64,000 nt of DNA, from positions 90,529-154,528 of the forward strand of contig CALVTR010000001.1 of the NCBI GenBank assembly GCA_944362965.1, read 5' to 3'. A program made the translations under genes and the position numbers. This stretch comes from an uncultured Clostridia bacterium (GTDB taxonomy: Bacteria > Bacillota > Clostridia > Christensenellales > UBA1242). The notes below the pieces were generated by a model that did no database searches, was not told where the DNA came from, and worked only from the letters and a program-made list of their open reading frames with translations. Shown in pieces: positions 3,645-63,161 of this stretch; position 1 is the stretch's first letter; every line of letters begins with the position of its first letter.

Positions 3645-4001
3645 TTATCGCTGCTGCTGTTGTTCGTCTCTTATTATTTCGCTTTCAAAAAAGCGTTCTT
3701 GAAACTCAGTTAAAGCACGGATCTGCTCGTCTGAATAGTCTTTATCTTGGCTCATCACAACCAGTTTGTCATCATTATCGTTTGTTCTATGAATGACAGC
3801 TTTAACAACACCTTCAAAAGCTTCAAGCGGTTTAAATTCACCAAGAACATAGGCATCAAGCTCTTCGCCATCACCTGAGATAGTCCCTGGAATGTAGCCA
3901 TAGTTGACAGGATAGATAAACCCATGCTTAGGATGTTTGCTCCCAAGCGGTCTATCCATTTTGACTATAACCTTTTTATTTAGATAATCTCTTGCATCCA
4001 T
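3645..4001 (-). CDS. short inorganic-pyrophosphatase-like protein
   Basis: 118 aa. The PVNYGYIPGT...GDGEELDAYVLG segment resembles the family I PPase acidic core, but the protein is much shorter than canonical PPase. Confidence 0.5.
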   Translation of the reverse strand: MDARDYLNKKVIVKMDRPLGSKHPKHGFIYPVNYGYIPGTISGDGEELDAYVLGEFKPLEAFEGVVKAVIHRTNDNDDKLVVMSQDKDYSDEQIRALTEFQERFFESEIIRDEQQQQR

Positions 4002-8475: not shown

Positions 8476-10395
8476 TTATACAATCGCAGTCCAATCTCGT
8501 TTATAATAAGTAGAACTTCCTAAATACTCTAAAGCATTCACAGGAATTGACGAAGCTTGAACAGTTGTTGAAGCGTAACCATTGCCTGACACCCTCCAAT
8601 TACATGTTGTATTTAGTGTTATCGTTTCAAGCCCTGTTACACTTTGGAAAGCATAGTAGCCTATAAATGTAACGCTTTCTGGGATTACTAGAGAAGTTAC
8701 AGCAAATCCACAATAATAAAAGGCAAGTCTACCTATACCTGTCACATTTGAAGATAGTTCTATCGTGATATTATCAAGCCCTGCGAAAGCACCAATTTCA
8801 ATATACGTGATTATACTATAAAGATAGCTTCCTTCGGTTATTGTTGTATTATCTGTTGCACGTATTAAAGCCATATCTTCAAGTCTAATTAAGCAGTTCA
8901 GTTCATTACCATCACTATCTCGACTTGTAAAGTATTGATTTTCAGGGTCTACATATATAGTTTTGATATTTTGGCACCCTGAAAATGCATATTCACTAGT
9001 AATATCATTAACATTTTTCCCTATATGGATGTTGCTAATAGATATGTTATTATAGTATTTATCATGACTATCTTCTTCAAGATATGATCTAAATAAATTT
9101 GGTATAGTTTCAACACTATCACCAAAAATGAAATTTGTTATAGTAGAGCCACTAAAAGTAGCAATGGTTGTTCCATCATACAAATAATTAAGACTCGCAT
9201 TTTTTGCATTATAATAAATTGTGTTTACACTTAAATCACTAAAAGCCTTGTGACCTATCCTTTCTACATTTGCACCTATAGTCAATTCTTCAAGATTGTC
9301 GCAAGCACAGAAAGCATATCCATCTATATCTGTCACGCTATCTGGAATTGTTATATTTGTTAAACTACTGCAATAATAGAAAGCATAATTACCTATACTT
9401 GTCACACTGTCTGGAATTACTATACTTGTTAAACTATCGCAACCAGAGAAAGCACGATCTCCTATACTTGTCACACTAAAAGTATAAGGTGATACTTCTG
9501 AGTTATAGGTTTCTGTTGGTATTTTTAATCCAATCACACTTGTATCACAGCCTGTAACACTTGCTGTGCCATCTGTGCCATCTTCGTTATAAGAATATGT
9601 TAAATAATTATCTGGCTCTTCAAATATTGCATAATAGGTTGCGGCAGAAGTATCGTCATATGTAAATTCATAATCAAAACTTGTTGATACAAGCTCTCCT
9701 GTTTCACTACCTGCTCTCCAACCTAAGAAAGCTGCTCCGTCAACGTCTGTAAAGTTGGCTGAAAGTGCAACTTGCTGCCCTATTTCTACTACTCCACCAC
9801 CTGTTGCTGTGCCTAGTGTTTCATTAGTCGATATCGCTGTCACTGATAGTGCTTCTTTTATTGTGATAACTATTTCTCCTAAATCTATGCTGTCAGAGTT
9901 TGGTGCCATGATTGTCAGCTCAAGTGTGCCGTCTGCTTGCGTAGTTGCAGGGTCAAATTCTTTAAAATCGTCACCATCTGAATCGGTTAAGTCATTCACA
10001 CCAATAATTCCGCTATGCCTTTCTGACACGCCGTCATTTGTAAGGGAGCTCAAGTCTACGTCCGCTATTTGCCAATAACTATCCGTTGCATTGATTATAT
10101 CAAAATACAAGGTAAAAGAGCCGTGACCATTCTCTTCTGTGTTTAAAGACGTTAAATCCATATTAAAGTTTCCGTTTATGTAACCCGGTGTAAAACTATC
10201 AACAACTATCTCTTCTCCGCCCGCTTCTTGATACCTGACTTCTTTAACATACAAGCTCTTGTCTGGAACTACAAAACTTAAACTTCCTTGCATGCTTATC
10301 TGTTGCTGCGTCGCTGCATATACCCCAAGTATCAATACACCAAGCATAAGCATAAATAACGAAATACATGATATTAGTTTTAATTTTAATGACAT
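8476..10395 (-). CDS. secreted/surface BspA-type leucine-rich-repeat protein (locus 1)
   Basis: The likely start is the MSLKLKL Met at 10395, preceded by AAGGAGAG; the 26 codons upstream run through the leader and are rejected. N-terminal K-rich and hydrophobic signal. The C-terminal half has ~23-aa repeats (SLTSIVIPDSVTSIGNYAFYYC). Confidence 0.85.
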   Translation of the reverse strand: MSLKLKLISCISLFMLMLGVLILGVYAATQQQISMQGSLSFVVPDKSLYVKEVRYQEAGGEEIVVDSFTPGYINGNFNMDLTSLNTEENGHGSFTLYFDIINATDSYWQIADVDLSSLTNDGVSERHSGIIGVNDLTDSDGDDFKEFDPATTQADGTLELTIMAPNSDSIDLGEIVITIKEALSVTAISTNETLGTATGGGVVEIGQQVALSANFTDVDGAAFLGWRAGSETGELVSTSFDYEFTYDDTSAATYYAIFEEPDNYLTYSYNEDGTDGTASVTGCDTSVIGLKIPTETYNSEVSPYTFSVTSIGDRAFSGCDSLTSIVIPDSVTSIGNYAFYYCSSLTNITIPDSVTDIDGYAFCACDNLEELTIGANVERIGHKAFSDLSVNTIYYNAKNASLNYLYDGTTIATFSGSTITNFIFGDSVETIPNLFRSYLEEDSHDKYYNNISISNIHIGKNVNDITSEYAFSGCQNIKTIYVDPENQYFTSRDSDGNELNCLIRLEDMALIRATDNTTITEGSYLYSIITYIEIGAFAGLDNITIELSSNVTGIGRLAFYYCGFAVTSLVIPESVTFIGYYAFQSVTGLETITLNTTCNWRVSGNGYASTTVQASSIPVNALEYLGSSTYYKRDWTAIV

Positions 10396-10435
10396 AACAC
10401 ACTCTCCTTTTTTTGCGAGCAAGCTTCGCCTAAGC

Positions 10436-10539
10436 GAGAAGGCATAAAGGCTGATAAGCCTTTCAGAAGGCAAAAGCTTTTGCCTTGTTGTGCATTTTGG
10501 AAAAATGCACGTGCCTTCTCACACTCGCGGCGAAGCCGC
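10436..10539 (-). promoter_or_regulatory. structured 5' leader of locus 1 (four-way junction plus GC hairpin)
   Basis: Outer stem GAGAAGGCA/TGCCTTCTC (10436-10444 / 10512-10520) encloses three hairpins at 10446-10463, 10467-10486 and 10490-10510. A GCGGC-GAA-GCCGC hairpin follows at 10527-10539. Confidence 0.55.
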
Positions 10540-10581: not shown

Positions 10582-10609
10582 AGTATACCCCCCCCGCAAC
10601 CCACGTCAA
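10582..10609 (-). promoter_or_regulatory. promoter P1 with a G8 tract in the spacer
   Basis: Minus strand reads TTGACG (10604-10609), TGGGTTGC, G8 (10588-10595), then TATACT (10582-10587), giving a 16-nt spacer. An A/T-rich UP-like region lies upstream. Confidence 0.65.
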
Positions 10610-10707
10610 GCAAATTTAACAAATTTTTTAAATTTTTTTGAAAAATTTTGTGCCTTAGGCACTTTTTATCGTGTGACTTGTCTATAATGCCGAGTTTATC
10701 TGTTCCA

Positions 10708-10826
10708 AGAGAGCGGTGATAAAGTTTATTTTTGAAACAACCTAATCTGACAATCGTCAAACATTTGGTTTGCGGACAGTGATGCAAACTAAGTTTGCCG
10801 GATAGTCGTCGAACATTTGGTTCGGT
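10708..10826 (-). repeat. copy of the hairpin-repeat family, inverted relative to the 21.4-21.8 kb array
   Basis: 10774-10821 matches the reverse complement of 21494-21541 at about 45/48 nt. Contains two AAAC/GAAC-CAAAT-GTTT/GTTC-GACG hairpin units. Confidence 0.7.
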
Positions 10827-10874
10827 GGCTTAGCCACTTTTTATCGACAAGTGTATCTATAACAAAGCATTTTT

Positions 10875-19979: not shown

Positions 19980-21196
19980 TTATTCAACAATAGCCCGCCA
20001 ATATCTATTGTAATAAGTATCTGTTAAATAAGTCAATGCATTTGTTTGAACTTCTGAAGCCGTTGACGTTGCTATAATTGATGAATCTGAGAAAGAACTG
20101 CTACTTGCTATTTCCCAGTTATATGGCGTATTGAATGTTATTGCTGTGAGTCTACCGCAACCATAGAAAGCTTCCCTACCTATACTTGTCACACTGTCTG
20201 GGATTGTTATACTTGTTAAACTACTGCAACCTCGGAAAGCACCTTCAAGTATACTTGTCACTCCTTCTGGGATTGTTATACTTGTTAAACTAGAGCAATT
20301 TTGGAAAGTAAAACTACCTATACTTGTCACTCCTTCTGGAATTACTATACTTGTTAAACTAGAGCAATTTTGGAAAGTAAAACTACCTATACTTGTCACT
20401 CCTTCTGGAATTACTATACTTGTTAAACTATCGCAACCAGAGAAAGCACGATCACACTAAATTCGTAAGGTGAACGAGAAGTTCTATATATTGTTGACGG
20501 GGTTACTAATTCTCCTGTTGCACTTGTATTACAATCTGATACTCTTGCTGTGCCTGGTGAAGTTGTATAACTATATTTTAAATTACTATTTGCTGTTTCA
20601 AATATTGCATAATAGGTTGTTGGTGAATTCTCTGTGAAGGTGAAATTATAGTCTGTAAGAGTTGATACAAGCTCTAGTATAGGAGATCGTGCTTTCTCTG
20701 GTTGCGATAGTTTAACAAGTATAGTAATTCCAGAAGGAGTGACAAGTATAGGGTCAAATTCTTTAAAGCCGTCTTCATCTGCGTCGGTTAGGTCATTCAC
20801 GCCAATTATCCCGCCATGTCTTTCTGACACACCATCATTTGCAAGAGCTCCTAAATCTACACTTTCTATTGACCACAGAATATCCGTTGCATTGATTATA
20901 TCAAAATACAAGATAAAAGAACCGTGACCATTCTCTTCTGTCTCTAAAGACGTTAAGTCCATATTAAAGTTTCCATTTATGTAACCCGGTGTGAAGCTAT
21001 CAACAACAATCTCTTCACCACCCGCTTCTTGATACCTGACTTCTTTAACAAACAAGCTTCTATCAGGCACGACAAAGCTTAAATTGCCTTGTATGCTTAT
21101 ATGCTGTTGCGTCGCTGCATATACCCCAAGTATCAACGCCCCTAGCATAAGCATAAATAATGAAATTGTGGATATCAATTTTACTTTTAATGACAT
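19980..21196 (-). pseudogene. rearranged BspA-type LRR surface protein paralog (locus 2)
   Basis: The N-terminal 150 aa are near-identical to locus 1. After KEFDP, about 85 codons are replaced by an antisense LRR unit. A 13-nt deletion at the FSV/DRAFSG junction causes a frameshift and stop at 20423. The LRR C-terminus continues in ORF 19980-20399. Confidence 0.8.
20386..20752. repeat. perfect 68-bp inverted repeat flanking a 231-bp segment
   Basis: 20386-20453 is the exact reverse complement of 20685-20752, checked base by base. Both arms encode one LRR unit (DRAFSGCDSLTSIVIPEGVTSIG). Confidence 0.9.
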
Positions 21197-21354
21197 AAAT
21201 CTCTCCTTAACGCAAAAATTTTATTTTTATTTTGTTTAATCACTGCTGTTTTTATGCAAATTTCGACCTTACTTGCATATCTTAGCCACATTTTAGCATT
21301 TTTGCAATCCCTTTGTCTCAAGGGTGACGGCACGATGCCGTCAAATCACGACCC

Positions 21355-21780
21355 GAATTTTCGAACCATATGTTCGACGATTGTTCGATTAAGAGTGTCT
21401 AAGTTTTAAACTACATCTCCGCTCTCTAAGCCTAACGCTTGGCGGTTATACGGCAGAGTGAGAATAAGAGATAAGCTATGTCTCCGCTCTTAAGCCAAAT
21501 GTTTGACGGCTGTCCGGCAAACTTAGTTTGCATCACTGTCCGATAAAGTGAATATAAGAAACAAACTTTATCTCCGCTCTCTAAGCCTAACGCTTGGCGA
21601 CTATCCGGCAGAGTAAGTTGAAAAAATAAACTTTGTCGCCGCTCTCAAACCTTACGTTTGACGATCGTCCGCGAGCCAGATGCTCGGCGTTTGTCCGGCA
21701 GAGTGACATAAAAGAATAGTCTTTATTCCCGCTCTCTTTAACCATATGTTCGACGGCTGTCTATGTGAGCGAGCTTTGTC
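21355..21780 (+). repeat. tandem array with alternating 65/90-bp units
   Basis: Unit heads T(C/T)(T/G/C)CCGCTCT at 21416, 21481, 21571, 21636 and 21726, giving spacings of 65, 90, 65 and 90. Each unit carries a 4-5 bp hairpin with a 5-nt loop followed by G(G/A)CG. Confidence 0.8.
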
Positions 21781-21788
21781 GCAGATAT

Positions 21789-21874
21789 GAGAAGGCATAA
21801 AGGCTGACAAGCCTTTTGGAAGGCAAAAAGTTTTTGCCTTCTTGTGCATTTTGAAAAAATGCACATGCCTTCTC
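21789..21874 (-). promoter_or_regulatory. locus 2 copy of the four-way-junction leader
   Basis: About 90% identical to 10436-10520, with the same outer stem GAGAAGGCA/TGCCTTCTC and three hairpins. Here about 590 bp of repeats separate it from the gene. Confidence 0.55.
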
Positions 21875-21928
21875 ACACTCGCGGCGAAGCCGCTCGCGAT
21901 GGACATAGTATGTCCATCTTTTGCTATT

Positions 21929-21956
21929 AGTATACCCCCCCCGCAACCCTTGTCAA
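21929..21956 (-). promoter_or_regulatory. promoter P2 with a G8 tract in the spacer
   Basis: Minus strand reads TTGACA (21951-21956), AGGGTTGC, G8 (21935-21942), then TATACT (21929-21934), giving a 16-nt spacer. Confidence 0.6.
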
Positions 21957-22112
21957 CAAATTTTAAGCATTTTTTTAAAAAATTTTTATTTTTTTTGTGG
22001 ATTTGTCTTATATTGATAAATTTTCCCTATCTCCACTTTATATGAATATCTTTTCATATAACTATAATTCCATTGTATACTCCCTTTCTTTTTCATTACA
22101 GCTTATAATTTG

Positions 22113-22230
22113 TTTCTCCGCCGCAGGCAAGCGAATGAGGGATTTTTATTAAAAAATCACAATAGGCAAAATATGTTTTGCCTATAAAAACTCTAGTGAG
22201 TTTTTCATTCGCTTGCCTGCGGCGGAGAAA
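22113..22230. other. nested palindrome D: 26-bp outer stem plus three hairpins
   Basis: TTTCTCCGCCGCAGGCAAGCGAATGA (22113-22138) pairs perfectly with 22205-22230. Inner hairpins lie at 22141-22158, 22162-22185 and 22187-22204. Confidence 0.7.
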
Positions 22231-22336
22231 ACTCAAAACCAGTTCTGTTCTATAAATTCCATCCTTATTATCTCTTCACCTTTCACTCTTCATTTTTCAC
22301 TCCCGCGTCAGCGGTATGTCGCCAAGCGTCCGGCTT

Positions 22337-22365
22337 AAAAAAAAGGTAGCCAATTCTGGCTACCC
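22337..22365 (-). terminator. ftsW terminator
   Basis: Minus strand reads GGTAGCC-loop-GGCTACC followed by T8. Confidence 0.75.
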
Positions 22366-22451
22366 ATAAATTAAATTTAAAGTTAAATTTATTTTTTATC
22401 ATAATTTTCACTAAAAAATGCAAAAATATGTGGTTATTTTGTCATTTTTAT

Positions 22452-23618
22452 TTAATTTTGCTTTGATTTTGAGAATTTCAGCTTTTTAAATTTTATCACT
22501 TTCACATCTCCGCCCTTTGACTGACGCAAGACGTTAAGACAAATTCCAATGCCTGCCATAAACACCATAACAGACGTCCCACCACTTGAAATAAACGGAA
22601 GTGGCAAGCCTGTTGGCGGGATTGAGCCTGTGACTACCGCAATATTAAGCAGTGTTTGAACGGCGATTATAAATGCAACACCGCTGACCAGCATTGAGCC
22701 AAACCTATCTTTTGCGTTTAGTGCAATTTTGATAAGCCTGTAGACAAGCACAAAGAACACAATCATCAAAATTGTCACACCAACAAAACCAATCTCTTCG
22801 CCGATGATTGACAAAATAAAGTCTGATTCAGCAAAAGGAAGAAAAAGGTATTTTTGACGAGAGTTGAAAAGTCCAACACCAAACCACCCGCCGTCACCAA
22901 GCGAATAGAGCGACTGAATAAGCTGAAAGCCTTCTCCTTGCGGTGACGCCCATGGGTCTATGAAGGCAAGCAGTCTTCTTAGGCGGTATGGCTCAAGCAC
23001 CACAAGCAGCGGAACGCAAGCAGCGGCAGGAATTGAGAACATAAGGGTGTGTTTTTTGCTCATTCCACCGATAATCAGCATAAAAAGAGTTACAAACGCG
23101 ATACACATAGTCACGCTCATTGACGGCTCTAGCATGATAAGCACGCACATCAGCCCGCCAACTATCAAAACAGACAGAAGCCCTTTAAAGGTTTTGACCT
23201 TGTCATGATTGTCGGACATATAGGCGGCAGTGAAAATCACTAGTGCAAACTTTGCTATCTCTGATGGCTGAATTGAAAACCCAAGTATTGACACCCAGCG
23301 TTTTGCACCATAACTTTCCATTCCAAGTCCAGGCACAAAGACAAGCACTAAAAGCACAAAAGTTCCGCCAACAATCCACCATTTATATTTTTTTAGCAGA
23401 TGATAGTCAAAAAAGGTGAAAAATATCATTGCGATAACGCCAAGCACCACACCAAAAATTTGTTTTATAAGAAAGAAATATTTGTTGCCATAGTGATAAT
23501 TTGCACTATAATATGACGCGCTATAAACCATTAAGCACCCAAAAATCACAAGTGCCATAACAAGTAGCGCAATTACTATAATATCAGTTCTGCATTTCGA
23601 TTTTTTCAAAGTTATCAA
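22452..23618 (-). CDS. ftsW: SEDS-family peptidoglycan polymerase FtsW/SpoVE
   Basis: Polytopic protein with LPFISSGGTS and ESDFI motifs. The start is uncertain: I favour the TTG at 23618, 7 nt after AAGGAG; the ORF extends to 23681, overlapping murD. Confidence 0.85.
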   Translation of the reverse strand: MITLKKSKCRTDIIVIALLVMALVIFGCLMVYSASYYSANYHYGNKYFFLIKQIFGVVLGVIAMIFFTFFDYHLLKKYKWWIVGGTFVLLVLVFVPGLGMESYGAKRWVSILGFSIQPSEIAKFALVIFTAAYMSDNHDKVKTFKGLLSVLIVGGLMCVLIMLEPSMSVTMCIAFVTLFMLIIGGMSKKHTLMFSIPAAACVPLLVVLEPYRLRRLLAFIDPWASPQGEGFQLIQSLYSLGDGGWFGVGLFNSRQKYLFLPFAESDFILSIIGEEIGFVGVTILMIVFFVLVYRLIKIALNAKDRFGSMLVSGVAFIIAVQTLLNIAVVTGSIPPTGLPLPFISSGGTSVMVFMAGIGICLNVLRQSKGGDVKVIKFKKLKFSKSKQN

Positions 23619-26000: not shown

Positions 26001-26119
26001 GGGCGGCGACAAAATTTTAAAACAAAAGTTTTAAAATTTAAAAAGAGAAACTTTTTATCGCTCCGAGATAAAAAGTTTCTCTTTTTTGCTCGCTTTTTCA
26101 AAGCGAGCGGTCGCCGCCC
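26001..26119. other. nested palindrome A: 10-bp GC outer stem plus three perfect hairpins
   Basis: GGGCGGCGAC (26001-26010) pairs with GTCGCCGCCC (26110-26119). Inner stems of 12, 16 and 9 bp lie at 26012-26039, 26044-26082 and 26088-26108. Confidence 0.7.
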
Positions 26120-31108: not shown

Positions 31109-31250
31109 AAAAACTCCTTTAAAAAATAACTAATTAAAATTAAATATTAAAAATTAAAAAATAAATAAAATTAATAAAAATTTGAATAAAATTTATAAAA
31201 AACAATAAAAAAACATAAAAAATATTAAAATTAAAGTCGAATTTATTTAA

Positions 31251-37463: not shown

Positions 37464-37645
37464 AATTTAACTCCGTGACAATATAATTGACTTAATTTAT
37501 AGATAAAATTCTGTGAAAACAATAAAAAATAGGTATTTTTTGTCTATTTTTGTGTTATTTTTATTTTGCACGATGAAAAATAAATAGTTTTTTAATTAAT
37601 TTAAAAAATAAGTTTAAATTTCCCTTAGTGTTATTTATGTTTTTT

Positions 37646-37787
37646 CCGCACCTTAGCGGAAGCTGTTTGACAAATTCTTGTCAAACCTTGCTTTTAAATA
37701 GCTCCCTAGAAAATCTAGGGGGCTATCTAAAAACAATAAAGCTTAAACGCTATTTGCGTTTAAGCTTTGCTTCCGCTAAGGTGCAGG
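37646..37787. other. nested palindrome B: 16-18 bp outer stem plus three hairpins
   Basis: 37648-37663 pairs with 37769-37784, plus 2 further bp beyond a bulge. Inner hairpins at 37665-37686 (9 bp), 37698-37726 (12 bp with one T-G) and 37738-37768 (13 bp). Confidence 0.7.
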
Positions 37788-37897
37788 TAAAAACACTTCT
37801 CTTCACATTTTTATAAAACTTTAATCAATAAACTTAAAATCTATACTTTCACCGTTTTTTCTTTAAATTTATGATTAATATTTATAAATTCTTAATA

Positions 37898-40861: not shown

Positions 40862-40926
40862 CTTTTCACTCCTTTTCTTTTTTATTTTTAGTTAAAGCTT
40901 TGTGAACATAGCTACGTGCTTTGCCC

Positions 40927-41032
40927 GTGCCTTAAGAAAACGTGCGAATTTTTAATTCGCACAGGCTGCAAATATTTGCAGCCTAAGAAACTCATTCGAG
41001 TTTCTGTTTTCTTAAGGCGCGGCCAAAGCCGC
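40927..41032 (-). promoter_or_regulatory. structured 5' leader of locus 3 (four-way junction plus GC hairpin)
   Basis: A 15-bp outer stem (40927-40941 / 41006-41020, one T-G pair) encloses hairpins at 40942-40962, 40963-40984 and 40986-41005, with 0-1 nt linkers. A GCGGC-CAAA-GCCGC hairpin lies at 41019-41032. Confidence 0.6.
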
Positions 41033-41076
41033 AGCCTATCCATTAAGAATAGAATATTATATCTTAATTCTCTTCT

Positions 41077-41103
41077 ATTATACCCCCCCGCAACCCACGT
41101 CAA
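41077..41103 (-). promoter_or_regulatory. promoter P3 with a G7 tract in the spacer
   Basis: Minus strand reads TTGACG (41098-41103), TGGGTTGC, G7 (41083-41089), then TATAAT (41077-41082), giving a 15-nt spacer. The upstream ~35 nt are identical to P1. Confidence 0.65.
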
Positions 41104-41349
41104 GCAAATTTAACAAATTTTTAAAAATTTTTTAAATTTTTTTATATTTTTTTATATTTTTTATTATTTTTATTATTTTTATTATTTGTATTATTAAAAA
41201 ATATTATACTCGATTTATATATCAAAAATCCAAATTAAACAAACATGGGTGCAAATAAAAAATATTACAAAGACATTTCATTGTGCTTTCTGTGTTTAAA
41301 AAAACCCAAAATTCTTGCTTTCTATAAACTTTTATACGCAAAGTTGACA

Positions 41350-41378: not shown

Positions 41379-43388
41379 TTAATTATCATTAAGAACAATG
41401 GCATTTCTTCTATCAATGTCGTAGAAGATTTTATCAACCTCAAGTTTTTTAGAAATTCCCATAGGTTCAGGAGCTGATGACTTAACCATACATTTAGTTG
41501 CATAGAACGGTGTCATGGTGTCCATCATGATTTCCTTTCTGAATATCTTTGCAACAACCGTCCATTGTTTAAGCTGTCTTAATTGTTGTTTATCAAGCAG
41601 CGGTCTGCGTGTTCGCTGAACAGAAGTCGAGATATTTTCTCCAGAATCTGATTCTTTTGTATTACGCGACCTATTCTCTTCTTCGTGGAATACCGTTGTT
41701 TCACCGCAGGCTTCTGAGAAGGCTTGAATAGTTGACGGGTCTTCTGAGCCTAAGAACACTTCCATCTGGAAGTTACCACGAATGTTTTGAGCTTCATCAG
41801 CACCATACTTAATATCAAGTTGTTTATATGATTGAAGAACTATTTCAAAGAACACGTTTCTTGAACGAGCAACTGTAACCATAGTTCCAAACTTAGGAAC
41901 AGGTGGCATATTACCAAACTCATCAAGAATGAAATATACAGGACGTTTAAGTTTTCCTGTCTTGCCATTCTTAGGATTTACTGTTCTGTTTGCGACATCG
42001 ACAAGCACCTTATAGAGCTGACTTATACAAAGCACGCCTAGTGGGTGACGTTCAGTTTTGTGGTCTGGAATACGAATGAAGAATGCTGTTGGACGTTCTG
42101 GGATATCTTCAAAATCAATATCCGTTCCGCTTGTCATATAGAAGATACCTTCGTCGCCGAGCATATTACCAATAGAAGAGCCAAGTGTTGAAATAAATGA
42201 CCTTTGTGTAACAGGGCTGGCAAGACAAACTGTTGACATAAGGTCATGCACGGTGCTAAGTCTTGGGTCTCTGCCTTCGCTATATTTTGTCAAAGTTTTA
42301 AGAGCATTTTCTCTATCACCCGCAGGATCACGGCGCATACAAATCTTATATAGATTATAGAAATTAAATTTGTCAAGAGTCATGCCCAGTCTCGGGTCGC
42401 GGCTATCTTCAAGCATACCTTCCATAATACCAAGAATAAAGTCACGACAACCATCAGGCCACATCTTATCTTTGGCATTAGGATCATCTGGAATAAGAGA
42501 AAGCGAAATGTTTTTTAAGTTAGATTTTGCTTCATCTTCAAGTTGAACACGTCTTGCTTCAAGTTCCTGTTGAAGGATGTCGTTATTTGGGAAAGCTTTT
42601 CCTTCAAAACCAAACCAAGTGTCGCCATAGGTTGCTCCACCAATTTGATCTGGCGAAAATCTTTTATAGCCCATCTCTTCAGGGGTTGCATTGCTTATCT
42701 TCTTTACTTCTTTTGCAAGATTTCCTGCTCTTTCATAAGTTTTATAAGCAATTTCCATAGGATTCCAACGTGATGACGCATAAGGATTTTCAAGGTTTAG
42801 AACGATAATATTATAGCCTTCTTCTCTTAAAGCGTTTGCATTATCGGCGTAAAGTTCGCCCTTAGGGTCAGTCATAACAAGGCTAGGCTTTTGCCCAGTG
42901 TGAGCAAGTATTCTAATTGTTGGATTTGCGAAAATCTGTGTCTTACCAGTACCAGTAGTACCTAAAACCAATGCGTGAGTTTCAGGTTTCATATTGACTT
43001 CATAATGCCCGCCAACTTCCTTATTTCTAAAAACAAAGCCTGTTTTCTTAAGCGATGGAAGATTGTTCCATGTTGAAAAGATAAGGTCTGGGTCAGTGCG
43101 TAATCTTTCAGTTGTGATAAATTTAGAGTCAAAGTTGATATCAGTCTTTTCGCCTTCAGCCGTAGTTCCAACATTAGAGCCCATACCTTTTTTCTCTTTT
43201 GATAAGAGCGCTGTGCATAGTCCTGCAATAACGCCTATCGCAAGCATAGCAAGTGATATAACATTGACAAGTGCATCCGTTATCTCTCTTGTGCCTTCTT
43301 GGGTAAAATAAGAAATTGCAACACCAATTCCATAACCAAGAATGCCAAATACCAACATTAAAATGACACTAAGCTTGAATTTCTTCAT
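41379..43388 (-). CDS. VirD4/TraG-type type IV coupling protein (membrane-anchored P-loop ATPase)
   Basis: Two N-terminal TM helices, Walker A LGTTGTGKTQ, the DPKGEL motif and Walker B YFILDEFGNM. Confidence 0.85.
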   Translation of the reverse strand: MKKFKLSVILMLVFGILGYGIGVAISYFTQEGTREITDALVNVISLAMLAIGVIAGLCTALLSKEKKGMGSNVGTTAEGEKTDINFDSKFITTERLRTDPDLIFSTWNNLPSLKKTGFVFRNKEVGGHYEVNMKPETHALVLGTTGTGKTQIFANPTIRILAHTGQKPSLVMTDPKGELYADNANALREEGYNIIVLNLENPYASSRWNPMEIAYKTYERAGNLAKEVKKISNATPEEMGYKRFSPDQIGGATYGDTWFGFEGKAFPNNDILQQELEARRVQLEDEAKSNLKNISLSLIPDDPNAKDKMWPDGCRDFILGIMEGMLEDSRDPRLGMTLDKFNFYNLYKICMRRDPAGDRENALKTLTKYSEGRDPRLSTVHDLMSTVCLASPVTQRSFISTLGSSIGNMLGDEGIFYMTSGTDIDFEDIPERPTAFFIRIPDHKTERHPLGVLCISQLYKVLVDVANRTVNPKNGKTGKLKRPVYFILDEFGNMPPVPKFGTMVTVARSRNVFFEIVLQSYKQLDIKYGADEAQNIRGNFQMEVFLGSEDPSTIQAFSEACGETTVFHEEENRSRNTKESDSGENISTSVQRTRRPLLDKQQLRQLKQWTVVAKIFRKEIMMDTMTPFYATKCMVKSSAPEPMGISKKLEVDKIFYDIDRRNAIVLNDN

Positions 43389-46505: not shown

Positions 46506-46581
46506 GGAAGTTTAGCTCAGCTGGGAGAGCATCTGCCTTACAAGCAGAGGGTCATAGGTTCGAGCCCTATAACTTCCACCA
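46506..46581 (+). tRNA. tRNA-Val (anticodon UAC) with encoded CCA
   Basis: Acceptor stem GGAAGTT/AACTTCC, D-loop AGCTCAGCTGGGAGAGC, anticodon loop CTTACAA, T-arm GGTTCGAGCCC and a 3' ACCA. Confidence 0.95.
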
Positions 46582-46693: not shown

Positions 46694-47419
46694 TTACTCT
46701 TTCCCTTTGTTTTTCTTATCTTTAATTTTCTTTTCTAATTTGTCAGCAAGTATATAGATAATGTATAGGTCAATTAAGCAAACTGATATAAAAACAAACC
46801 AATCAATGATTGTTAGCGCTGACCAATCTATTAGGTCGCTGCCAAGAAAACAGGTCATAGCCACGCAGACAGTTCGGCAAAATACAACTATCAGTAGGAA
46901 CTCCCACCAACGCATCTTAGTTATGCCAGCAACCATGCAAAGTGCGTCATCTGGAAAGAATGGAAATAAGAACATAAGCGGCAAGTATATCTTAGATTTT
47001 ACTGCTACTAAGTCTTGAGCTTTCTTTAGACTTTCTTCCCCTACCATTCTAATAGCTATTTTTTCTCCGCCGAATCTACCGATTAAAAACATAGCCATAC
47101 TTGATAGAACAACGCCAACAGAAGATATGACAAAGCCCTGCCATGCTCCAAATAGGATGATTGAAACAATAATAAAGGTCATGCTTGTTGCTGGGACTAA
47201 GCATAGCAACGTTGTCACTAGAACCTGTAATAATATAAACACTACCCATCCCCAAGCGCCACAGTCTGCTATTAGCGTTCGAAGACCATCAACTGATGTT
47301 ATACCAAGACTATCAAGAGTAATCCATGCTATGCCAGAGATAAAAACAATGCATGCAATTAGAATAACCCATTTAACCCACGTTTTCAGTTTCATTAGTG
47401 TCCTCGTCTTCAATAACAA
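46694..47419 (-). CDS. TVP38/TMEM64 (DedA-related) family membrane protein
   Basis: Polytopic protein with a pattern like the SNARE-associated/TVP38 family (LLQVLVTTLLCLVPATSM...GRFGGEKI). Overlaps the upstream gene; an alternative start lies at 47395. Confidence 0.65.
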   Translation of the reverse strand: MLLKTRTLMKLKTWVKWVILIACIVFISGIAWITLDSLGITSVDGLRTLIADCGAWGWVVFILLQVLVTTLLCLVPATSMTFIIVSIILFGAWQGFVISSVGVVLSSMAMFLIGRFGGEKIAIRMVGEESLKKAQDLVAVKSKIYLPLMFLFPFFPDDALCMVAGITKMRWWEFLLIVVFCRTVCVAMTCFLGSDLIDWSALTIIDWFVFISVCLIDLYIIYILADKLEKKIKDKKNKGKE

Positions 47420-48401
47420 TCTTTGATATTCCTAAGTCCTTAAGCATTTTAGTGTAAATCGATTTTCGGCTCTCAAGAGCTTTGTAGTATTTGCCAAGTA
47501 TGATTTTATTTGACAAACCTATTCCTTTAATCATAAACACAATTAAAGTCACAAGATTGATAAGCAGGCTTAAAACAGTGTTCCAACCTAAAGAATTAAA
47601 CGTTGGAAAGATTAAGCAGCTAACAAACCCTGCTGAAATTAAGCCTGTAGCGACATACTTCATTACACTTGCAGTAAGTTCTCTTTTTTCGTCAAAGAAG
47701 GCAGATGCAGGCTTAGTTCTTGTTTCTTCCACGTCTGATAATAAATTCCCCCAATAGATAGGCTTATAGTGCAGCTTTATTGTGCGAAACTTATACTCGT
47801 CAGTATTTAGCTCTTCACTCAGCTTTGAGATTTCATTAGCGTCACCTTTGTTTACAATTAGACTAATGCGTTTTCTGTCCTTCTTGACGTAATCTAATTG
47901 TTTTAAGAGTTCTTGCTTTTTCTGGGTTGTTTTATCAAACTCTAATTTCTTCTTGTCGTAATTTTTGTCACTTTTTTGCGGATCAACGCAGTGCAGCTTT
48001 TCATATAAAGATTTTATTTTATCTTCATAAATATCAAGTTTAATTTGATAGTTATAGACTTCCTTAAGCCAATTTTCCGCATCTGCAACCTTGTCCAGTG
48101 CATAGATAGTTTTTCTTTGCCCGTCAATCTCGTCTTGTATATCAGTAATCTTCTTTTTCTTTAAATCTCTACCTTTCTGTATGAGATACATGCCAAACAA
48201 AACTGAAAGTTCTGATGCAAGCAATATCGAAAAGCTTGCCCAATATGAGGCAGTAAGTATCTTGCTAAAATCAAAGCCTACCGTAATAAACGACATAAAA
48301 CCGTTAGCAATAAGAACTAAGATTATTATGAGCGTTCCAGAAATGCCACGAAGTAAATCCTTTTTGTTAATACTACTTATCTTGTCTTTCAGATTGTTCA
48401 T
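47373..48401 (-). CDS. membrane protein with a long central coiled coil
   Basis: Two N-terminal and about three C-terminal hydrophobic helices around a K/E-rich heptad region. Confidence 0.55.
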   Translation of the reverse strand: MNNLKDKISSINKKDLLRGISGTLIIILVLIANGFMSFITVGFDFSKILTASYWASFSILLASELSVLFGMYLIQKGRDLKKKKITDIQDEIDGQRKTIYALDKVADAENWLKEVYNYQIKLDIYEDKIKSLYEKLHCVDPQKSDKNYDKKKLEFDKTTQKKQELLKQLDYVKKDRKRISLIVNKGDANEISKLSEELNTDEYKFRTIKLHYKPIYWGNLLSDVEETRTKPASAFFDEKRELTASVMKYVATGLISAGFVSCLIFPTFNSLGWNTVLSLLINLVTLIVFMIKGIGLSNKIILGKYYKALESRKSIYTKMLKDLGISKIVIEDEDTNETENVG

Positions 48402-48897
48402 TTACCTTAACCCCACTTTTAGTCTTAATCCACTGAGCGACTCCATTAAAACCTAAGCCAACGCACATTGAGATTGACACAACCATGAGAGTGCCACGAA
48501 GTGATACAACTTGTTTTTCAATCATAGCAACAATAAACCATGCAAGCACAAATGGAGCTACAAAGCATGCATTTCTAAACATCTCTTGTTTTGCTTCCCA
48601 TTTTTTCTTTTGTGTAACAAGTTCGGATTTTTGATTATTGTCCACGCACTCAATACATTGATTAGTTATATCGTTTATCTTCTTTTTTAGGTGTCGCCCA
48701 TAAAAGAACACGGCTATAACCACCATAAGAGCGACAACAAATATCGCACTGCAACTGACCTTGTCCCACACGCTTGTTTGCTCGCTTATGAGAGTATCAA
48801 TTAAAAATGCATAGAGTGCATAGCCACCTGGAACGATATAACAAAAAACTCTGTATAACCATGTAAACAGAGTTAGTTTCCAATTCTTTTCTTTCAT
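48373..48897 (-). CDS. four-TM membrane protein
   Basis: 174-aa ORF with four hydrophobic segments, overlapping both neighbouring genes. Confidence 0.55.
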   Translation of the reverse strand: MKEKNWKLTLFTWLYRVFCYIVPGGYALYAFLIDTLISEQTSVWDKVSCSAIFVVALMVVIAVFFYGRHLKKKINDITNQCIECVDNNQKSELVTQKKKWEAKQEMFRNACFVAPFVLAWFIVAMIEKQVVSLRGTLMVVSISMCVGLGFNGVAQWIKTKSGVKVNEQSERQDK

Positions 48898-48900
48898 TTT

Positions 48901-49515
48901 TTACTCCACTATAACTCGTCTTGCTTTCTTGACTTTTTTAGACTTTGTGGCTGGCTGTGTTTGTGTTTCTAACTCTTTTTGCTCTTCTGTTGTCACCTGT
49001 TCGGGCTCTTGCGTTTCTTCGCTTACAGGCTCAATTTCAGGCTCATTTTTGCCTTCTTCTAGTGTATTTTGAGCTTCTTCAATTTTTGAGTTTAAGTCGT
49101 CAAGCAATTCTTGTGCACTCTCGCCTTCTGTTATAAGTTTATCGTAGAGCGCAACCTTTATCTTTTGAGCTTTCTTTAAAAGTTTTTGTATGTAAATTTT
49201 TAATTCTTCTTTCGTTTTTTCGGTTTGTTCATTTAGCAGCGTTTGCAATGACAACTGAAATTCGCTTATTGCTGATGTAACTTGAGCTCTTAGTGTTTCA
49301 AACGAAATTTGCAGCGGTGTTCCATTCTTTTTGTTGATTCTGCCCTGAACACATACAAGTATGAGTTTAGCAATAAAAGTAAGTATTGCAATTATACCAC
49401 TTGTTCCGCCAAGCACGCCTAAAAGCTTGTCCCAATTTTGTGTTATAAAATCGCTAGCTTCTGTAACCCACTGTGCCTGTAATAGTAAACCTATCATAGT
49501 CCCTCCTCCTTCCAT
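48901..49515 (-). CDS. membrane-anchored coiled-coil/acidic protein
   Basis: One TM helix near the N-terminus, then a coiled coil and an E/Q/T-rich tail ending in a basic KKVKKARR. Confidence 0.55.
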   Translation of the reverse strand: MEGGGTMIGLLLQAQWVTEASDFITQNWDKLLGVLGGTSGIIAILTFIAKLILVCVQGRINKKNGTPLQISFETLRAQVTSAISEFQLSLQTLLNEQTEKTKEELKIYIQKLLKKAQKIKVALYDKLITEGESAQELLDDLNSKIEEAQNTLEEGKNEPEIEPVSEETQEPEQVTTEEQKELETQTQPATKSKKVKKARRVIVE

Positions 49516-49928
49516 AACTTAATAAAAAAGTCCAACTTGGTGCTGAGCTCTTCTACTTTACTTTTAAGTTCTTTTATTGTGTCCCCCTGTTCTTCAATGA
49601 TTGATTTTAAAGCGTCAACTTCGGGTATTGCTTTAATCTCGTTATCTGTGTCTTGAATAATAAGTCTGTCGCATGGTATACGTTTAACGAGCGTGCCTTG
49701 ATAGTATATTTCAACATTTGTTTCAAGCACTCCATCAATGAACACTTCACTTGGCAAGGCAAAAGTATAATTTGCTTTGATTTTCGCACTTTTGTTACCA
49801 TTTTTAAAGCACAGATACACGTCATATTTATTGTCAATGTTGCGAACAAGAGTTATTATTTCATTGCAGACTATCGTTTTCTGTGACCAAAATCCCCTAT
49901 TATTTTCTATTCTTAGTTCCATATTCAC
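49494..49928 (-). CDS. phage hypothetical protein
   Basis: 144-aa ORF translationally coupled to its neighbours, with a C-terminal coiled coil. Confidence 0.5.
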   Translation of the reverse strand: MNMELRIENNRGFWSQKTIVCNEIITLVRNIDNKYDVYLCFKNGNKSAKIKANYTFALPSEVFIDGVLETNVEIYYQGTLVKRIPCDRLIIQDTDNEIKAIPEVDALKSIIEEQGDTIKELKSKVEELSTKLDFFIKLWKEEGL

Positions 49929-50257
49929 TCCTTAACTGCTCTAGGTTCTTTACCTAAAAGCTCTCTTAATTCATTATGGAGCTCAACAAATTCGGCTTTT
50001 CGCTCTTCGATATCTGGCACGACTTCGCCTGCCATATCTTGAATAATATCTTGGTCAAGCTGAGTTAAACGTTCTTGAATTTCATATTTTCTTTTATTGC
50101 CCAATTCTTTTTGAGTTGGCTCAATTTTTTGAATTTGAAATCTTCTGCCTTGCTCGTCTGGCTCGAGTTCAACAATCGTAAGTCCGTTTTGATTACAATA
50201 ATTCGCTCTTGCTGAATATTCGCCGTCTAAATAAAAAATATCTCCTACATTATACAT
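49925..50257 (-). CDS. phage hypothetical protein
   Basis: The start is taken at MYNVGD after AAGGAG, directly downstream of the fibre gene stop. Confidence 0.5.
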   Translation of the reverse strand: MYNVGDIFYLDGEYSARANYCNQNGLTIVELEPDEQGRRFQIQKIEPTQKELGNKRKYEIQERLTQLDQDIIQDMAGEVVPDIEERKAEFVELHNELRELLGKEPRAVKE

Positions 50258-50268
50258 AATTTCTCCTT

Positions 50269-51255
50269 TTATTTGCCTATAGCAACCCAATAAACATCAA
50301 CAGTAGAACTTGCTGTTATTTTAAAACCTGTTAAATTTGGATTACTAATTGACAAATCATAATTCGAAGCCTTACTGAAAGAAACTGGGGACACAATTAT
50401 AGACGAAACACTTTCAGTATAAGGTGTTTCATAGTTCGCAGTATAATTAAGAGCCCCAATAACAATCCCCCAGTTAACAATAGTTTCTCCTATTTTTACT
50501 GAATTAGTTCCTTGTTGAATTAAATTTATGATTTTATTGTTTAAGTTATTGAACTGCGTTTGTGGGTCACTGTCAAAGTTTAAATTTTGTTGTAATTCTC
50601 CACCAACATTGACTGCGGTTTTAGTTTCAACAGCAGAATCTACTTCCGTCTGCGTCACATAACCTGCTCCATTCGTAAGCTGATTATTATTTGTTGGAAG
50701 CTGTGACGTAGTGGCATACCCTGCACCATTTGAAAGTTGTGAGTTATCTGTAGGTATGGTTGGCTTGCCTGTTAAGTCTTCATAAGAACCACTTGTTGCA
50801 ACTGAAGCAAGAGATGATACATCTGCTTTTAAATCTGCATCCCATGTAGTTTGTGGTTGTCCACCTACAATAACAGTCGTTCCACCTTCAGTTAGAGTTT
50901 GCGGTGTTAGGTTTCCGTCGTCACCAACAAGCATTACTTTGCCTGCATTTGCGATACCTTGATTTTTGTCTAGTTTGTCAGTTTCAAGATTGGTTATATC
51001 AGTCGTATTTGATTGAACGCCACTTTGCAATGTTGATACATTATCTTCCAGAGTTGACACATCAGTCTTGAGCTGTGCAATATCACTTGTGTTTTGTGCA
51101 ACCTGCTCTGTCATATTGTCCTCGACAACATAAGTTGTGTCCTTAGGTGAATATGTGTAAACTATGCTATTAACCGTTATAGTCCCGTTTTCTTTTAACT
51201 CGTCAAACTGCTCTTTTGTTAGTTTAACGACACCTTTATATAGATTGTTGCTCAT
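50269..51255 (-). CDS. phage tail fibre protein
   Basis: Coiled-coil N-terminal part plus two N-x-QL-x-NGAGY-x-T repeats typical of phage tail-fibre repeats. Confidence 0.7.
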   Translation of the reverse strand: MSNNLYKGVVKLTKEQFDELKENGTITVNSIVYTYSPKDTTYVVEDNMTEQVAQNTSDIAQLKTDVSTLEDNVSTLQSGVQSNTTDITNLETDKLDKNQGIANAGKVMLVGDDGNLTPQTLTEGGTTVIVGGQPQTTWDADLKADVSSLASVATSGSYEDLTGKPTIPTDNSQLSNGAGYATTSQLPTNNNQLTNGAGYVTQTEVDSAVETKTAVNVGGELQQNLNFDSDPQTQFNNLNNKIINLIQQGTNSVKIGETIVNWGIVIGALNYTANYETPYTESVSSIIVSPVSFSKASNYDLSISNPNLTGFKITASSTVDVYWVAIGK

Positions 51256-51433
51256 CTTCGTTTATCTCCTTAGGTAATTCTTCATCACTCTCAATATAAG
51301 TGTATTTATTAGGAATATCTATTGCTTCAACATACTTCTTGCCCGTTTCGTTTTGAATAATATACTTATTAGCGTCACTGTATGTCTTTATAAGTTGTCT
51401 GTCGTTTACAATTATTGTTTCTTGTTTAATCAT
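51236..51433 (-). CDS. small phage protein
   Basis: 65-aa ORF overlapping both neighbouring genes. Confidence 0.45.
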   Translation of the reverse strand: MIKQETIIVNDRQLIKTYSDANKYIIQNETGKKYVEAIDIPNKYTYIESDEELPKEINEDEQQSI

Positions 51434-53262: not shown

Positions 53263-53263
53263 A

Positions 53264-54676: not shown

Positions 54677-54704
54677 ATTTTCTCCTTAAATTAAAAAAGC
54701 AAGA

Positions 54705-55726: not shown

Positions 55727-55743
55727 GCTCCCTCCTTTTTATT

Positions 55744-55773
55744 ATTATAGTATTTTATCATAAAATTTGTCAA
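55744..55773 (-). promoter_or_regulatory. internal sigmaA-type promoter in front of the ImmA-like gene
   Basis: Minus strand reads TTGACA (55768-55773), an 18-nt spacer, then TATAAT (55744-55749), followed by an AAAGGAGGGAG RBS. Confidence 0.55.
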
Positions 55774-55874
55774 GTACAAGATTTAATTTTATAAGAAATG
55801 GAATTTTGCCCAATATTTTTGCGATTTTTGCACTTTTTATGCAAATATTTAAAAAATAATATCAACTTTCCCCT

Positions 55875-56363: not shown

Positions 56364-56408
56364 AAACTAATGATAATATATTGGCAATATTTTGTCAACG
56401 GAAAATTT

Positions 56409-56960: not shown

Positions 56961-57005
56961 AAAACCTCTTATTTTATTTTAATAAATAATTAGTTTATAT
57001 GTCAA

Positions 57006-62141: not shown

Positions 62142-62189
62142 ACTTTCTCCTTATATAAGAATAAAGGCTCCCACTTTGAGAGCCTTATA

Positions 62190-63146: not shown

Positions 63147-63161
63147 TTTTATTCTCCTTTA

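Follow-up and report, generated by a model that had tools for sequence, protein, structure and literature searches.

REPs, which RAYT transposases mobilise and which occur in mosaic clusters, are short GC-rich single hairpins of 20–40 nt whose conserved end is GTAG/CGTC. Integron attC sites are a family defined by folded palindromic structure and not by sequence. They are 57–141 nt long, lie between co-oriented genes and are single imperfect hairpins with extrahelical bases, R′/R″ core sites (GTTRRRY) and the IntI integrase. The Correia/NEMIS elements have terminal inverted repeats of ~24 bp and occur as 107- and 155-bp elements, and RNase III has been proposed to act on their transcripts (PMC2229807). 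Structured intergenic repeats in general (REP/BIME, ERIC, Correia) are transcribed together with neighbouring genes and affect termination, processing and the stability of mRNA (PMC2229807). Roles in termination, in protection of mRNA ends and in DNA topology have been proposed for REP/BIME (PMC3733652, PMC3184786). In cwpV of Clostridioides difficile, inverted repeats flank a promoterless leader segment that forms a terminator in one orientation; the repeats are imperfect, 21 bp long and placed around 195 bp, and a dedicated recombinase, RecV, is involved (PMC2784873).

Here we describe a 118-nt element, D, in a 64-kb stretch of DNA from an uncultured Clostridia bacterium (the whole stretch is called the window). 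We conclude with high confidence that D is one copy of a family of lineage-specific intergenic nested palindromes, each made of an outer repeat, almost no unpaired bases and exactly three short-looped hairpins. The family resembles the Correia/NEMIS elements of Neisseria and bacterial MITEs in size (~100–155 bp), in terminal inverted repeats of ~24–26 bp and in being intergenic and multicopy, and it resembles the former in co-transcription with neighbouring genes into long stems, which are proposed RNase III targets (PMC2229807). Correia elements, however, share a consensus and are flanked by a TA target duplication, and no set of palindromes makes up their interior, whereas the D family has a common topology, almost no common sequence and an interior that always consists of three perfect hairpins. 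Of the features of a MITE, D has the terminal inverted repeats (26/26, 118 bp) but neither a common consensus nor a target-site duplication. Like REP/BIME and REPINs of proteobacteria (PMC3733652, PMC3184786), the copies are abundant intergenic palindromes between co-directional genes in both orientations; unlike REPs, they showed no tag, consensus or transposase, and their unit is a closed four-helix junction. As in cwpV and the invertons of gut bacteria, a promoterless segment in or close to the leader of a phase-variable surface-protein gene is enclosed by inverted repeats, and D and a related copy, D′, differ by such a flip. Unlike cwpV, the core is 64–68 bp, the arms of different copies are unrelated and no recombinase was found nearby. 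D has the flanking inverted repeats of an inverton, but no shared repeat motif and, among the window ORFs tested, no invertase. With attC the family shares its definition by fold and its position between co-oriented genes, but D has arms of the form TTTCTCC...GGAGAAA and perfect bulge-free stems, and neither RYYYAAC...GTTRRRY sites nor an integrase was found. No description of nested three-hairpin elements of this kind was found in the literature searched. The D family is previously undescribed within the structured palindromic intergenic repeats, and it is unusual in its fixed four-way topology without a sequence consensus and in the comparative evidence for core inversion.

Results

Structure of element D

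D occupies positions 22113–22230 of the window. A repeat search paired its outer arms in 26 of 26 positions. The 66 nt between the arms are taken up by three hairpins, all perfectly paired (7, 10 and 8 bp) and each with a loop of 4 nt, and only 1–3 unpaired bases lie between the helices of the junction. The parts, none of which is assigned a strand, are as follows.

22113–22138: 5′ arm of the outer inverted repeat, TTTCTCCGCCGCAGGCAAGCGAATGA; pairs 26/26 with 22205–22230; the same in metagenome contig L091 and in D′ (contig L165)
22205–22230: 3′ arm of the outer inverted repeat, from the repeat search and the RNA and DNA folds
22141–22158: hairpin 1, GATTTTT-ATTA-AAAAATC, 7 bp, read from the sequence and the folds
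22162–22185: hairpin 2, ATAGGCAAAA-TATG-TTTTGCCTAT, 10 bp, arms 22162–22171 and 22176–22185
22186–22205: hairpin 3, AAAAACTC-TAGT-GAGTTTTT, 7–8 bp, arms 22186–22193 and 22198–22205, in agreement with the folds

Hairpin 1, in which G22141–T22147 pairs with A22152–C22158 around the loop ATTA, was present in all folds. Hairpin 3, at its full 8 bp, shares T22205 with the outer arm. The initial annotation had described a 26/26 outer stem with inner hairpins of 7, 10 and 7–8 bp, and the repeats, the sequence and the folds all reproduced this anatomy. The minimum free energy of D folded as RNA was −73.4 kcal/mol on the plus strand (z = −14.6) and −72.1 kcal/mol on the minus strand (z = −16.0), with a four-way junction on both; folded as DNA it was −53.2 (z = −17.1). 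None of 200 shuffles folded as stably, either as RNA of either strand or as DNA.

On the minus strand hairpin 2 is followed by TGTGATTTTTT; it reads ATAGGCAAAACATATTTTGCCTAT and then TGTGATTTTT, which is the arrangement of a GC-containing hairpin and a U-run. A terminator scan and a second scan of our own agreed that this hairpin is terminator-like. The element as a whole has no U-run after it on either strand. The ORFs that cross D are only short and spurious. A search against Rfam at gathering thresholds gave a tRNA at 46506 as its sole match and nothing at D, and a permissive search of 21100–22500 gave only sub-threshold matches to microRNA precursors, which are due to the long stem. An assembly artefact was ruled out, as the independent metagenome contig L091 has an identical D; family members are present in assemblies from several samples (L007, L165, L166, L168).

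Genomic context

Nearly all genes of the window lie on the minus strand. By Pfam, the neighbourhood of D is a dcw and sporulation cluster with mraY, murD, ftsW/spoVE, murA, ftsQ, ftsA, ftsZ, spoIIGA and two sigma factors, together with spoIIR, sleB/ypeB and a SipL-domain gene. The ftsW gene was identified through Pfam FTSW_RODA_SPOVE. All relatives of its product came from metagenome-assembled genomes of uncultured gut Clostridia near Candidatus Caccovivens and Christensenellales; among representative genomes the best match has 91% protein identity, and L091, at 99.4% DNA identity, is from the same species as the window. The features around D are given below.

22344–22365, minus strand: intrinsic terminator of ftsW/spoVE, GGGTAGCCAGAATTGGCTACC then T8, ~115 nt before D in the direction of transcription
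22272–22336, minus strand: conserved GC/purine-rich upstream motif, GACGCTTGGCGAC...CCGCTGACGCGGGAGTGAAAAATGAAGAGTGAAAG, in the same promoter-upstream module as D
21929–21956, minus strand: promoter P2, TTGACA, a 16-nt spacer ending in G8, TATACT; D ends ~157 nt upstream of the −35 element
21582–21601, no strand assigned: one arm of a 20-nt inverted repeat (18/20) with its partner at 22318–22337; the 716 bp between them hold D, P2 and the 21.8-kb element

Read along the minus strand, the ftsW stop is followed by the terminator (22365–22344), the GC/purine-rich motif, D, a spacer of ~157 nt and P2. After P2 come a short 5′ hairpin, the 21.8-kb element and ~560 nt of 63–65-nt repeat units, and then the surface-protein gene (MSLKVKL...), BspA-type LRR ORFs and murA. 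In the relatives L004, L006 and L009 the genome runs from ftsW to murA within a few hundred bases, which places D at the edge of an inserted surface-protein cassette. The GC/purine-rich motif recurs at L165:964-1028 (91%) and L165:15615-15691 (83%). The G-tract of P2 differs in length in L091, and P2 is probably phase-variable. The same promoter with a G7–G9 spacer precedes the 10.4- and 40.9-kb elements and is common across the clade, and the length of the poly-G run varies between assemblies. No flip of the segment between the 20-nt repeats around P2 was seen between the window and L091. A 68-nt inverted-repeat pair also lies in the LRR genes of the window.

Pfam scans of the window ORFs tested detected no tyrosine or serine recombinase domain, no RAYT (Y1 transposase) and no integrase or transposase domain, and no protein associated with the elements is encoded in the window. 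In L165, the Pfam listing of the called genes likewise contained no recombinase. D does not match a retron ncRNA, with no reverse-transcriptase domain in the ORFs neighbouring D and six copies of the element in 64 kb.

Recurrence of the topology in the window

Sites at 10.4, 21.8, 26.0, 37.7 and 40.9 kb fold with the same outer stem and three hairpins as D. They are listed below, without strand.

10421–10538 (10.4 kb): leader of a BspA-LRR surface-protein gene; paralog of the 21.8-kb element
21773–21890 (21.8 kb): in the 5′ leader of the P2 transcript; top-scoring match to the D model, with its orientation opposite to that of D (58.8 bits plus, 38.2 bits minus)
26001–26119 (26.0 kb): 119 nt, between the terminator of the upstream gene and the conserved mraY promoter; syntenic with L007:7544-7662
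37640–37792 (37.7 kb): imperfect stems, between the SipL-domain gene and spoIIR
40918–41029 (40.9 kb): leader after the poly-G promoter at 41.09 kb; homologs at L166:93-182 and L168:8613-8701

A strict descriptor was used, with perfect Watson–Crick stems, an outer stem of at least 8 bp, tandem hairpins of at least 6 bp and spacers of at most 8 nt; a scan based on Lfold was too noisy and missed D, and a seed-plus-fold scan was also noisy at loose settings. The strict descriptor found five elements with three hairpins in the 64-kb window and none with two or four, and in 30 dinucleotide shuffles of the window it found none with two, three or four hairpins. This is far beyond chance, and the zero count in shuffles goes against one refutation named with the initial annotation, an equal frequency in shuffled sequence. 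The 37.7-kb copy, with its imperfect stems, is missed by the descriptor and detected by the covariance model only. The six places of like topology that had been reported in the window therefore stand, with folds for all of them, five by the descriptor and the 37.7-kb copy by the model.

The covariance model, R1, was made from D alone and run with filters off; with default filters nearly all diverged copies are dropped. In the window it gave full-length matches at 21.8 kb (E = 2e-12), 40.9 kb (9e-11), 10.4 kb (1e-9), 37.7 kb (6e-6) and 26.0 kb (4e-3), and the next-best match after these five had an E value of only 0.39. In 90 kb of DNA of the window organism or a close relative (the window, L165 and L164), R1 found 11 elements with E < 0.01 on one or both strands, and no other match reached this threshold. 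Both elements of L007, which have longer hairpins, are missed even with filters off. In the R1 alignment of the 11 elements, which is fitted to the model and includes both strands of 8 of the 11, standard pairs filled 95.8% of cells, compared with 55.9% after shuffling; 49 of 50 pairs had changed on both sides, with 336 cells of double-sided change against about a dozen of one-sided change. Loops and junctions had no conserved bases.

No BLAST similarity connects D with the other copies in the window, and only the structure-aware model does so. D nevertheless shares AGGCAAAA/TTTTGCCT, AAACTC/GAGTTT and a TGTG linker with other copies, and the R1 matches to the five (E = 2e-12 to 4e-3) are partly due to these short common motifs. 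The earlier statement that none of the stems share sequence is thus correct in part: the 10.4- and 21.8-kb elements are paralogs, short motifs are common to several copies, and the arms of D′ are identical to those of D. The copies end differently (TTTCTCC, GCTTTG, GGGCGG, CGAGGC and others), and the arms of different members have no common motif. Total length ranges from 85 to 155 bp and the outer inverted repeat from 9 to 37 bp, several outer helices being at least 22 bp.

All copies are intergenic, dispersed and found in both orientations, at a density of ~1 element per 10 kb in DNA attributed to the window species. Some are 5′ leaders, 30–45 nt after poly-G promoters. Others lie 130–220 nt upstream of poly-G promoters, as do D, D′ and the post-ftsW element of L007, so that this arrangement is found in L007 and L165 as well; the element at L165:15509 is ~430 nt upstream of the same promoter as D′. 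The remaining placements are other gaps between co-directional genes, such as 26.0 kb (terminator/mraY promoter), 37.7 kb (before spoIIR), L165:6480 (20 nt upstream of the tmk start) and L168:2508 (47 nt downstream of feoB). Copies are placed between co-directional transcription units and 60–220 bp upstream of promoters. In our own scan a terminator-like hairpin on the sense strand was present in only 5 of 15 family members, which rules out termination as the function of the whole family. The family is neither a set of simple terminators nor an ordinary MITE family with a consensus, as the initial annotation had argued.

Distribution in relatives and synteny

The strict descriptor found five elements in the 64-kb window, four in 21 kb of L165 and two in 20 kb of L168, the last two contigs having been found through surface-protein paralogs. 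L164 (4.5 kb) and L167 (2.5 kb) had none, with one looser match each. No element was found by the descriptor in more distant relatives (L009–L080, 1.23 Mb) or in mostly unrelated metagenome loci (L092–L159, 0.79 Mb). Single elements were found in the rpsL leader of L004 and L006 and 9 nt after the murA stop in L008, L084 and L085, and L007 has two. The family is, with high confidence, lineage-specific, with ~1 copy per 10 kb in the window species and sporadic copies in its closest relatives. A BLAST search of the region downstream of ftsW against 80 loci of GTDB-representative genomes (L001–L080) gave short motif matches only and none to D, and collections of phages and plasmids gave no match to D.

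The FtsW of L007 is 88% identical to that of the window. L007 has an element of 118 nt ~120 nt after ftsW and one of 119 nt upstream of mraY; in the window D is 118 nt and the 26.0-kb element 119 nt. The base pairs of these syntenic elements are split differently between outer and inner helices, and MAFFT gave no credible sequence alignment between the window and L007 elements. From one outer arm to the other, the two copies in L007 are paralogous: CGAGGCTTG and hairpin 1 are common to both, hairpin 3 differs, and hairpin 2 shows a compensated double change, TT/AA to AG/CT. About 45 other relatives had no comparable element before mraY, and 18 of the 19 relatives checked had none after ftsW. 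Absence from syntenic positions had been named as a refutation of the initial annotation; it was observed in these relatives, but L007 has elements of the same topology and length at both spots. Upstream of mraY and downstream of ftsW the intergenic DNA is too diverged among the relatives compared for an empty site or a target-site duplication to be recognised.

D′, a copy with an inverted core

Motif searches found the arms of D only in D itself and in L091, and direct comparison added D′ (L165:15784-15915). D′ has the 26-nt arms of D unchanged in a stem extended to 31–32 bp. Its right flank (plus strand of L165), up to the poly-G promoter, was 73% identical to the minus strand of the window, compared with 40% in the other orientation, and further left L165:15615-15691 matched window positions 22318–22242 at 83%. 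On the plus strand, however, the core of D′ was 81% identical to the plus strand of D and 51% to its minus strand. Model scores for the orientation of D′ (115 vs 95 bits) agreed with these identities. The flanks of D′ thus follow the minus strand of the window and its core the plus strand. This is most simply explained by inversion of the 66-bp core between the outer arms, through exchange within them, as seen in one pair of paralogous copies at two loci and not within one population. In D the terminator-like hairpin is found on the sense strand, in D′ on the antisense strand. Identity between D and D′ falls from 100% in the arms to 81% in the core and 73% in the right flank.

A second core inversion, between the L165 leader and the 10.4- and 21.8-kb elements, is suggestive only: hairpin order and one loop fit it, and alignment scores are weak. 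Assemblies of the same locus did not differ in orientation (window vs L091; 40.9-kb locus vs L166). No target-site duplication was present at D, with flanks ...ATAATTTG / D / ACTCAAAA..., or at D′, with flanks ...TATAGTA / D′ / ATAAGTTG....

Base pairing on the two strands

Fifteen elements contained 741 Watson–Crick pairs (~97% of pairs), with 12 G–U pairs when read on the gene-sense strand and 13 when read on the antisense strand, each of the latter counting as an A–C mismatch in sense RNA. The ordinary terminators of the window, used as control, had 4–6 G–U pairs against 0–2 A–C in ~100 pairs; these numbers are small and not significant alone. No strand folded consistently better among the elements. 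The 40.9-kb element and L168:8613 differ by a 2-bp deletion that is mirrored in the two arms of the stem, and by a replacement at the foot of hairpin 2. The symmetric rarity of G–U, the lack of a better strand, the unconserved loops and the mirrored changes favour a constraint that applies to the palindrome as DNA, or alike to both orientations, over one that applies to a single transcribed strand. The sequence appears to turn over fast while both arms of a stem change together, and arm-to-arm copying by template switching or hairpin repair would yield such mirrored, strand-symmetric pairing.

Discussion

We tentatively favour, at less than even confidence, the reading that D is a structured insulator of the REP or Correia kind with a flippable core. 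D would then be a piece of structured punctuation, REP/BIME- or Correia-like, between the ftsW terminator and the poly-G promoter P2 of the surface-protein cassette. RNA reading through D would form a highly stable four-way junction. As D is oriented now, the middle hairpin followed by UGUGAUUUUUU could serve as a back-up intrinsic terminator, and the perfect 26-bp helix could be a substrate of the RNase III type; either route would keep transcription of the dcw housekeeping operon separate from the phase-variable cassette. Judging from the one comparison of D with D′, the outer arms act as inverted repeats across which the core can invert, and a flip would abolish the terminator-like arrangement. 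This reading follows from the position between terminator and promoter, from hairpin 2 and UGUGAUUUUUU on the sense strand and from the 26-bp perfect helix. Against it, a canonical terminator precedes D, and little RNA may reach the element; also against it are the few members with a terminator-like hairpin on the sense strand (5 of 15), the missing U-run after the complete element, the single pair of copies that shows the inversion, the shortness of the core relative to known invertons, the lack of a common arm motif and the absence of recombinase or transposase domains from the window ORFs tested. Among the roles first proposed for the element, recombination site and insulator gain some support from the core inversion and from the location of D between a terminator and a promoter, respectively, whereas a strand-specific cloverleaf RNA is not favoured by the symmetric G–U counts and the lack of an Rfam match.

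Nearly as likely as the insulator is a selfish or neutral palindromic repeat of the MITE or REP type, spread or duplicated as DNA, with no job for D at this locus. Its stems would be kept perfect by template switching between the arms, correction of hairpin mismatches and repeat-mediated inversion, which agrees with the symmetric G–U and A–C counts and with the indels mirrored in both arms. The copies are intergenic, dispersed, in both orientations and lineage-restricted, no associated protein is encoded in the window, and D and D′, like the L007 copies, are alike exactly arm to arm while their flanks differ or their core is flipped. A consensus sequence is absent, however, neither D nor D′ has a target-site duplication, and most copies are unique, so that recent copy-and-paste spread is not visible. 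The constant three hairpins and tight junctions over unrelated sequences would also be hard to maintain without selection, two species have elements in matching places relative to promoters and gene ends, and the arms of D are 100% conserved compared with 81% for the core and 73% for the right flank. A programmed inverton, in which a recombinase often flips the 66-bp core and sets an orientation-dependent terminator of the cwpV type as a second layer over the poly-G switch, seems quite improbable. The arms are perfect inverted repeats, the D′ core is inverted relative to both flanks with its terminator-like hairpin turned from sense to antisense, the elements are associated with phase-variable surface-protein cassettes, and the region has other inverted repeats (the 20-nt pair around P2 and the 68-nt pair in the LRR genes); there is also a precedent in Clostridia (cwpV, PMC2784873). 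But the core is far shorter than those described (195 bp in cwpV; ~206 bp in a Clostridium example), the arms of different members have no common recognition motif, and same-locus assemblies show no mixed or alternative orientation. No recombinase was present in the window ORFs tested or in the L165 Pfam listing, although one may be encoded elsewhere in the genome, and a core of three perfect palindromes would be left unexplained.

An RNA element proper, the four-way junction being a barrier to 5′ or 3′ exonucleases or an RNase III processing module in mRNAs, is also unlikely. Such an element would stabilise leaders in the manner of those in S-layer or ompA mRNAs, and D would be a displaced or 3′-UTR copy of it. 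Several copies must indeed be transcribed, namely the leaders 30–45 nt after strong promoters, L165:6480 before tmk, the L008 element 9 nt past the murA stop and that in the rpsL leader of L004, and the extreme stability and the several outer helices of at least 22 bp fit this role. The sense strand shows no excess of G–U over A–C, however, no strand folds consistently better, loops and junctions are without conserved bases and Rfam gave no match; moreover, D, the 26.0-kb element and the D-like element of L007 lie upstream of promoters, D and the 26.0-kb element also downstream of terminators. We consider it very improbable that D is a DNA-structural device whose 118 bp extrude under negative supercoiling as a double cloverleaf cruciform or bind a junction- or palindrome-specific protein, as a supercoiling buffer or insulator between neighbouring transcription units. 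Perfect, strand-symmetric palindromy, short AT-rich hairpin centres, copies between co-directional units 60–220 bp upstream of promoters, and the equal total length of both syntenic pairs (118 and 119 bp) despite differently divided helices would suit such a device. The proposal is purely inferential, the leader and intercistronic copies misfit a role upstream of promoters, and family members range from 85 to 155 bp in total length. Finally, there is a small chance that the elements are a new class of self-contained DNA switches with a fixed four-way topology and cores that flip between the outer repeats. Flipping may then proceed without a dedicated sequence-specific recombinase, by structure-driven template switching, or through a structure-specific one, and may provide orientation-dependent punctuation of transcription at an estimated 100–200 sites per genome in this lineage of uncultured gut Clostridia, layered on the phase variation of surface proteins by poly-G promoters.

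If the nested palindromes described here are what they appear to be, a sizeable share of the intergenic DNA of these uncultured human-gut Clostridia would consist of a class of elements defined by shape, which would escape homology searches and repeat finders. The family would be a clean natural example of a structure kept through complete sequence turnover, with arm-to-arm co-variation that seemingly takes place on DNA. Around surface-protein cassettes, which matter for interactions with host and phage, it could contribute another level of phase variation or of insulation between transcripts.

Sequence motifs accompanying D

We found that the nested palindrome D (22113-22230) and its copy D' on contig L165 are each directly preceded upstream by a conserved purine-rich stretch built of GTGAAAA-like heptamers (GGGAGTGAAAAATGAAGAGTGAAAGGTGAAGAG). 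Within this stretch, an RBS-like GGGAG is followed by the ATG of tiny ORFs starting MKSE. A second kind of repeat occupies 21358-21761 and makes up most of a 560-nt leader: tandem units, each 63-65 nt long, that have diverged and now resemble one another at about 60-80%. These units contain the motifs ACGCTTGGCGAC/ATGTTCGACGAC and CTTTATCTCCGCTCTC, and were not reported by Tandem Repeats Finder. Fragments of them are also present 3' of ftsW in loci L006 and L082.

Purine-rich stretches and 63-65-nt leader units
22272-22300, minus: purine-rich heptamer stretch
L165:998-1025: purine-rich heptamer stretch
L165:15625-15660: purine-rich heptamer stretch
10700-10860, opposite orientation: related leader units
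L165:916-1135: related leader units

Inverted repeats in the surface-protein region

D, the promoter P2 and the related palindromic element at 21.8 kb lie on a 716-bp segment bounded by a 20-nt inverted repeat with an 18/20 match (TAAGCCTAACGCTTGGCGAC; 21582-21601 and 22318-22337), which also occurs at 21427-21444. This layout is the same as that of a classical invertible promoter; no flip of the segment was seen between the window and L091, a metagenome contig of the same species. A perfect 68-nt inverted repeat (20386-20453 and 20685-20752, spacing 231 nt) consists of one BspA-type LRR repeat unit present in opposite orientations. At this repeat the surface-protein gene is split between one ORF at 20423-21196 and another at 19980-20399, whereas the paralog of the gene at 8476-10473 is intact. 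The sequence of L091 differs from the window across the stretch. The 68-nt repeat may be an intragenic inversion or shufflon-like site.

Neighboring genes and assembly differences

Immediately upstream of the 40.9-kb promoter-leader cassette, and close to recO, is a gene for a VirD4/TraG-like type IV secretion coupling protein (41379-43388); the window showed no further genes for conjugation. A prophage-like block with scaffold and capsid genes, adjoined by a tRNA gene (46506-46578), occupies about 47000-64000; in contig L160 a terminase and an SPP1-type portal follow just past the window end. The block encodes a 610-aa BspA-LRR protein (51430-53262).

An AT-rich tandem repeat of about 100 nt in the window (31145-31248) is missing at L091:2537-2555; the two strains, which are 99.4% identical, differ here in repeat number. 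The public metagenome contig L082 ends (3883-3919) in CTGTCTCTTATACACATCTCCGAGCCCACGAGAC, the Nextera transposase adapter sequence, so the deposited assembly is contaminated with adapter here.

Poly-G promoters

Secreted-protein genes with the N-terminus MSLKVKL... lie downstream of sigma-70-type promoters whose 15-17-nt spacer has a run of 7-9 G at its end (TTGACG-TGGGTTGCGGGGGGGG-TATACT).

Poly-G-spacer promoters
10586-10620, minus
21929-21956, minus (P2)
41076-41105, minus
Other loci: L002:11540, L006:3400, L007:11707, L008:11299
L010:5044, L010:11621, L081:89, L081:7350, L165:16071

This promoter type is widespread in the clade. The length of the G-run at a single locus differs between assemblies: the G8 of the window is a shorter, interrupted run in L091, and where the window has G7, L166 has G8+AG. 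Judged from these assemblies, the length differences look like slipped-strand phase variation.
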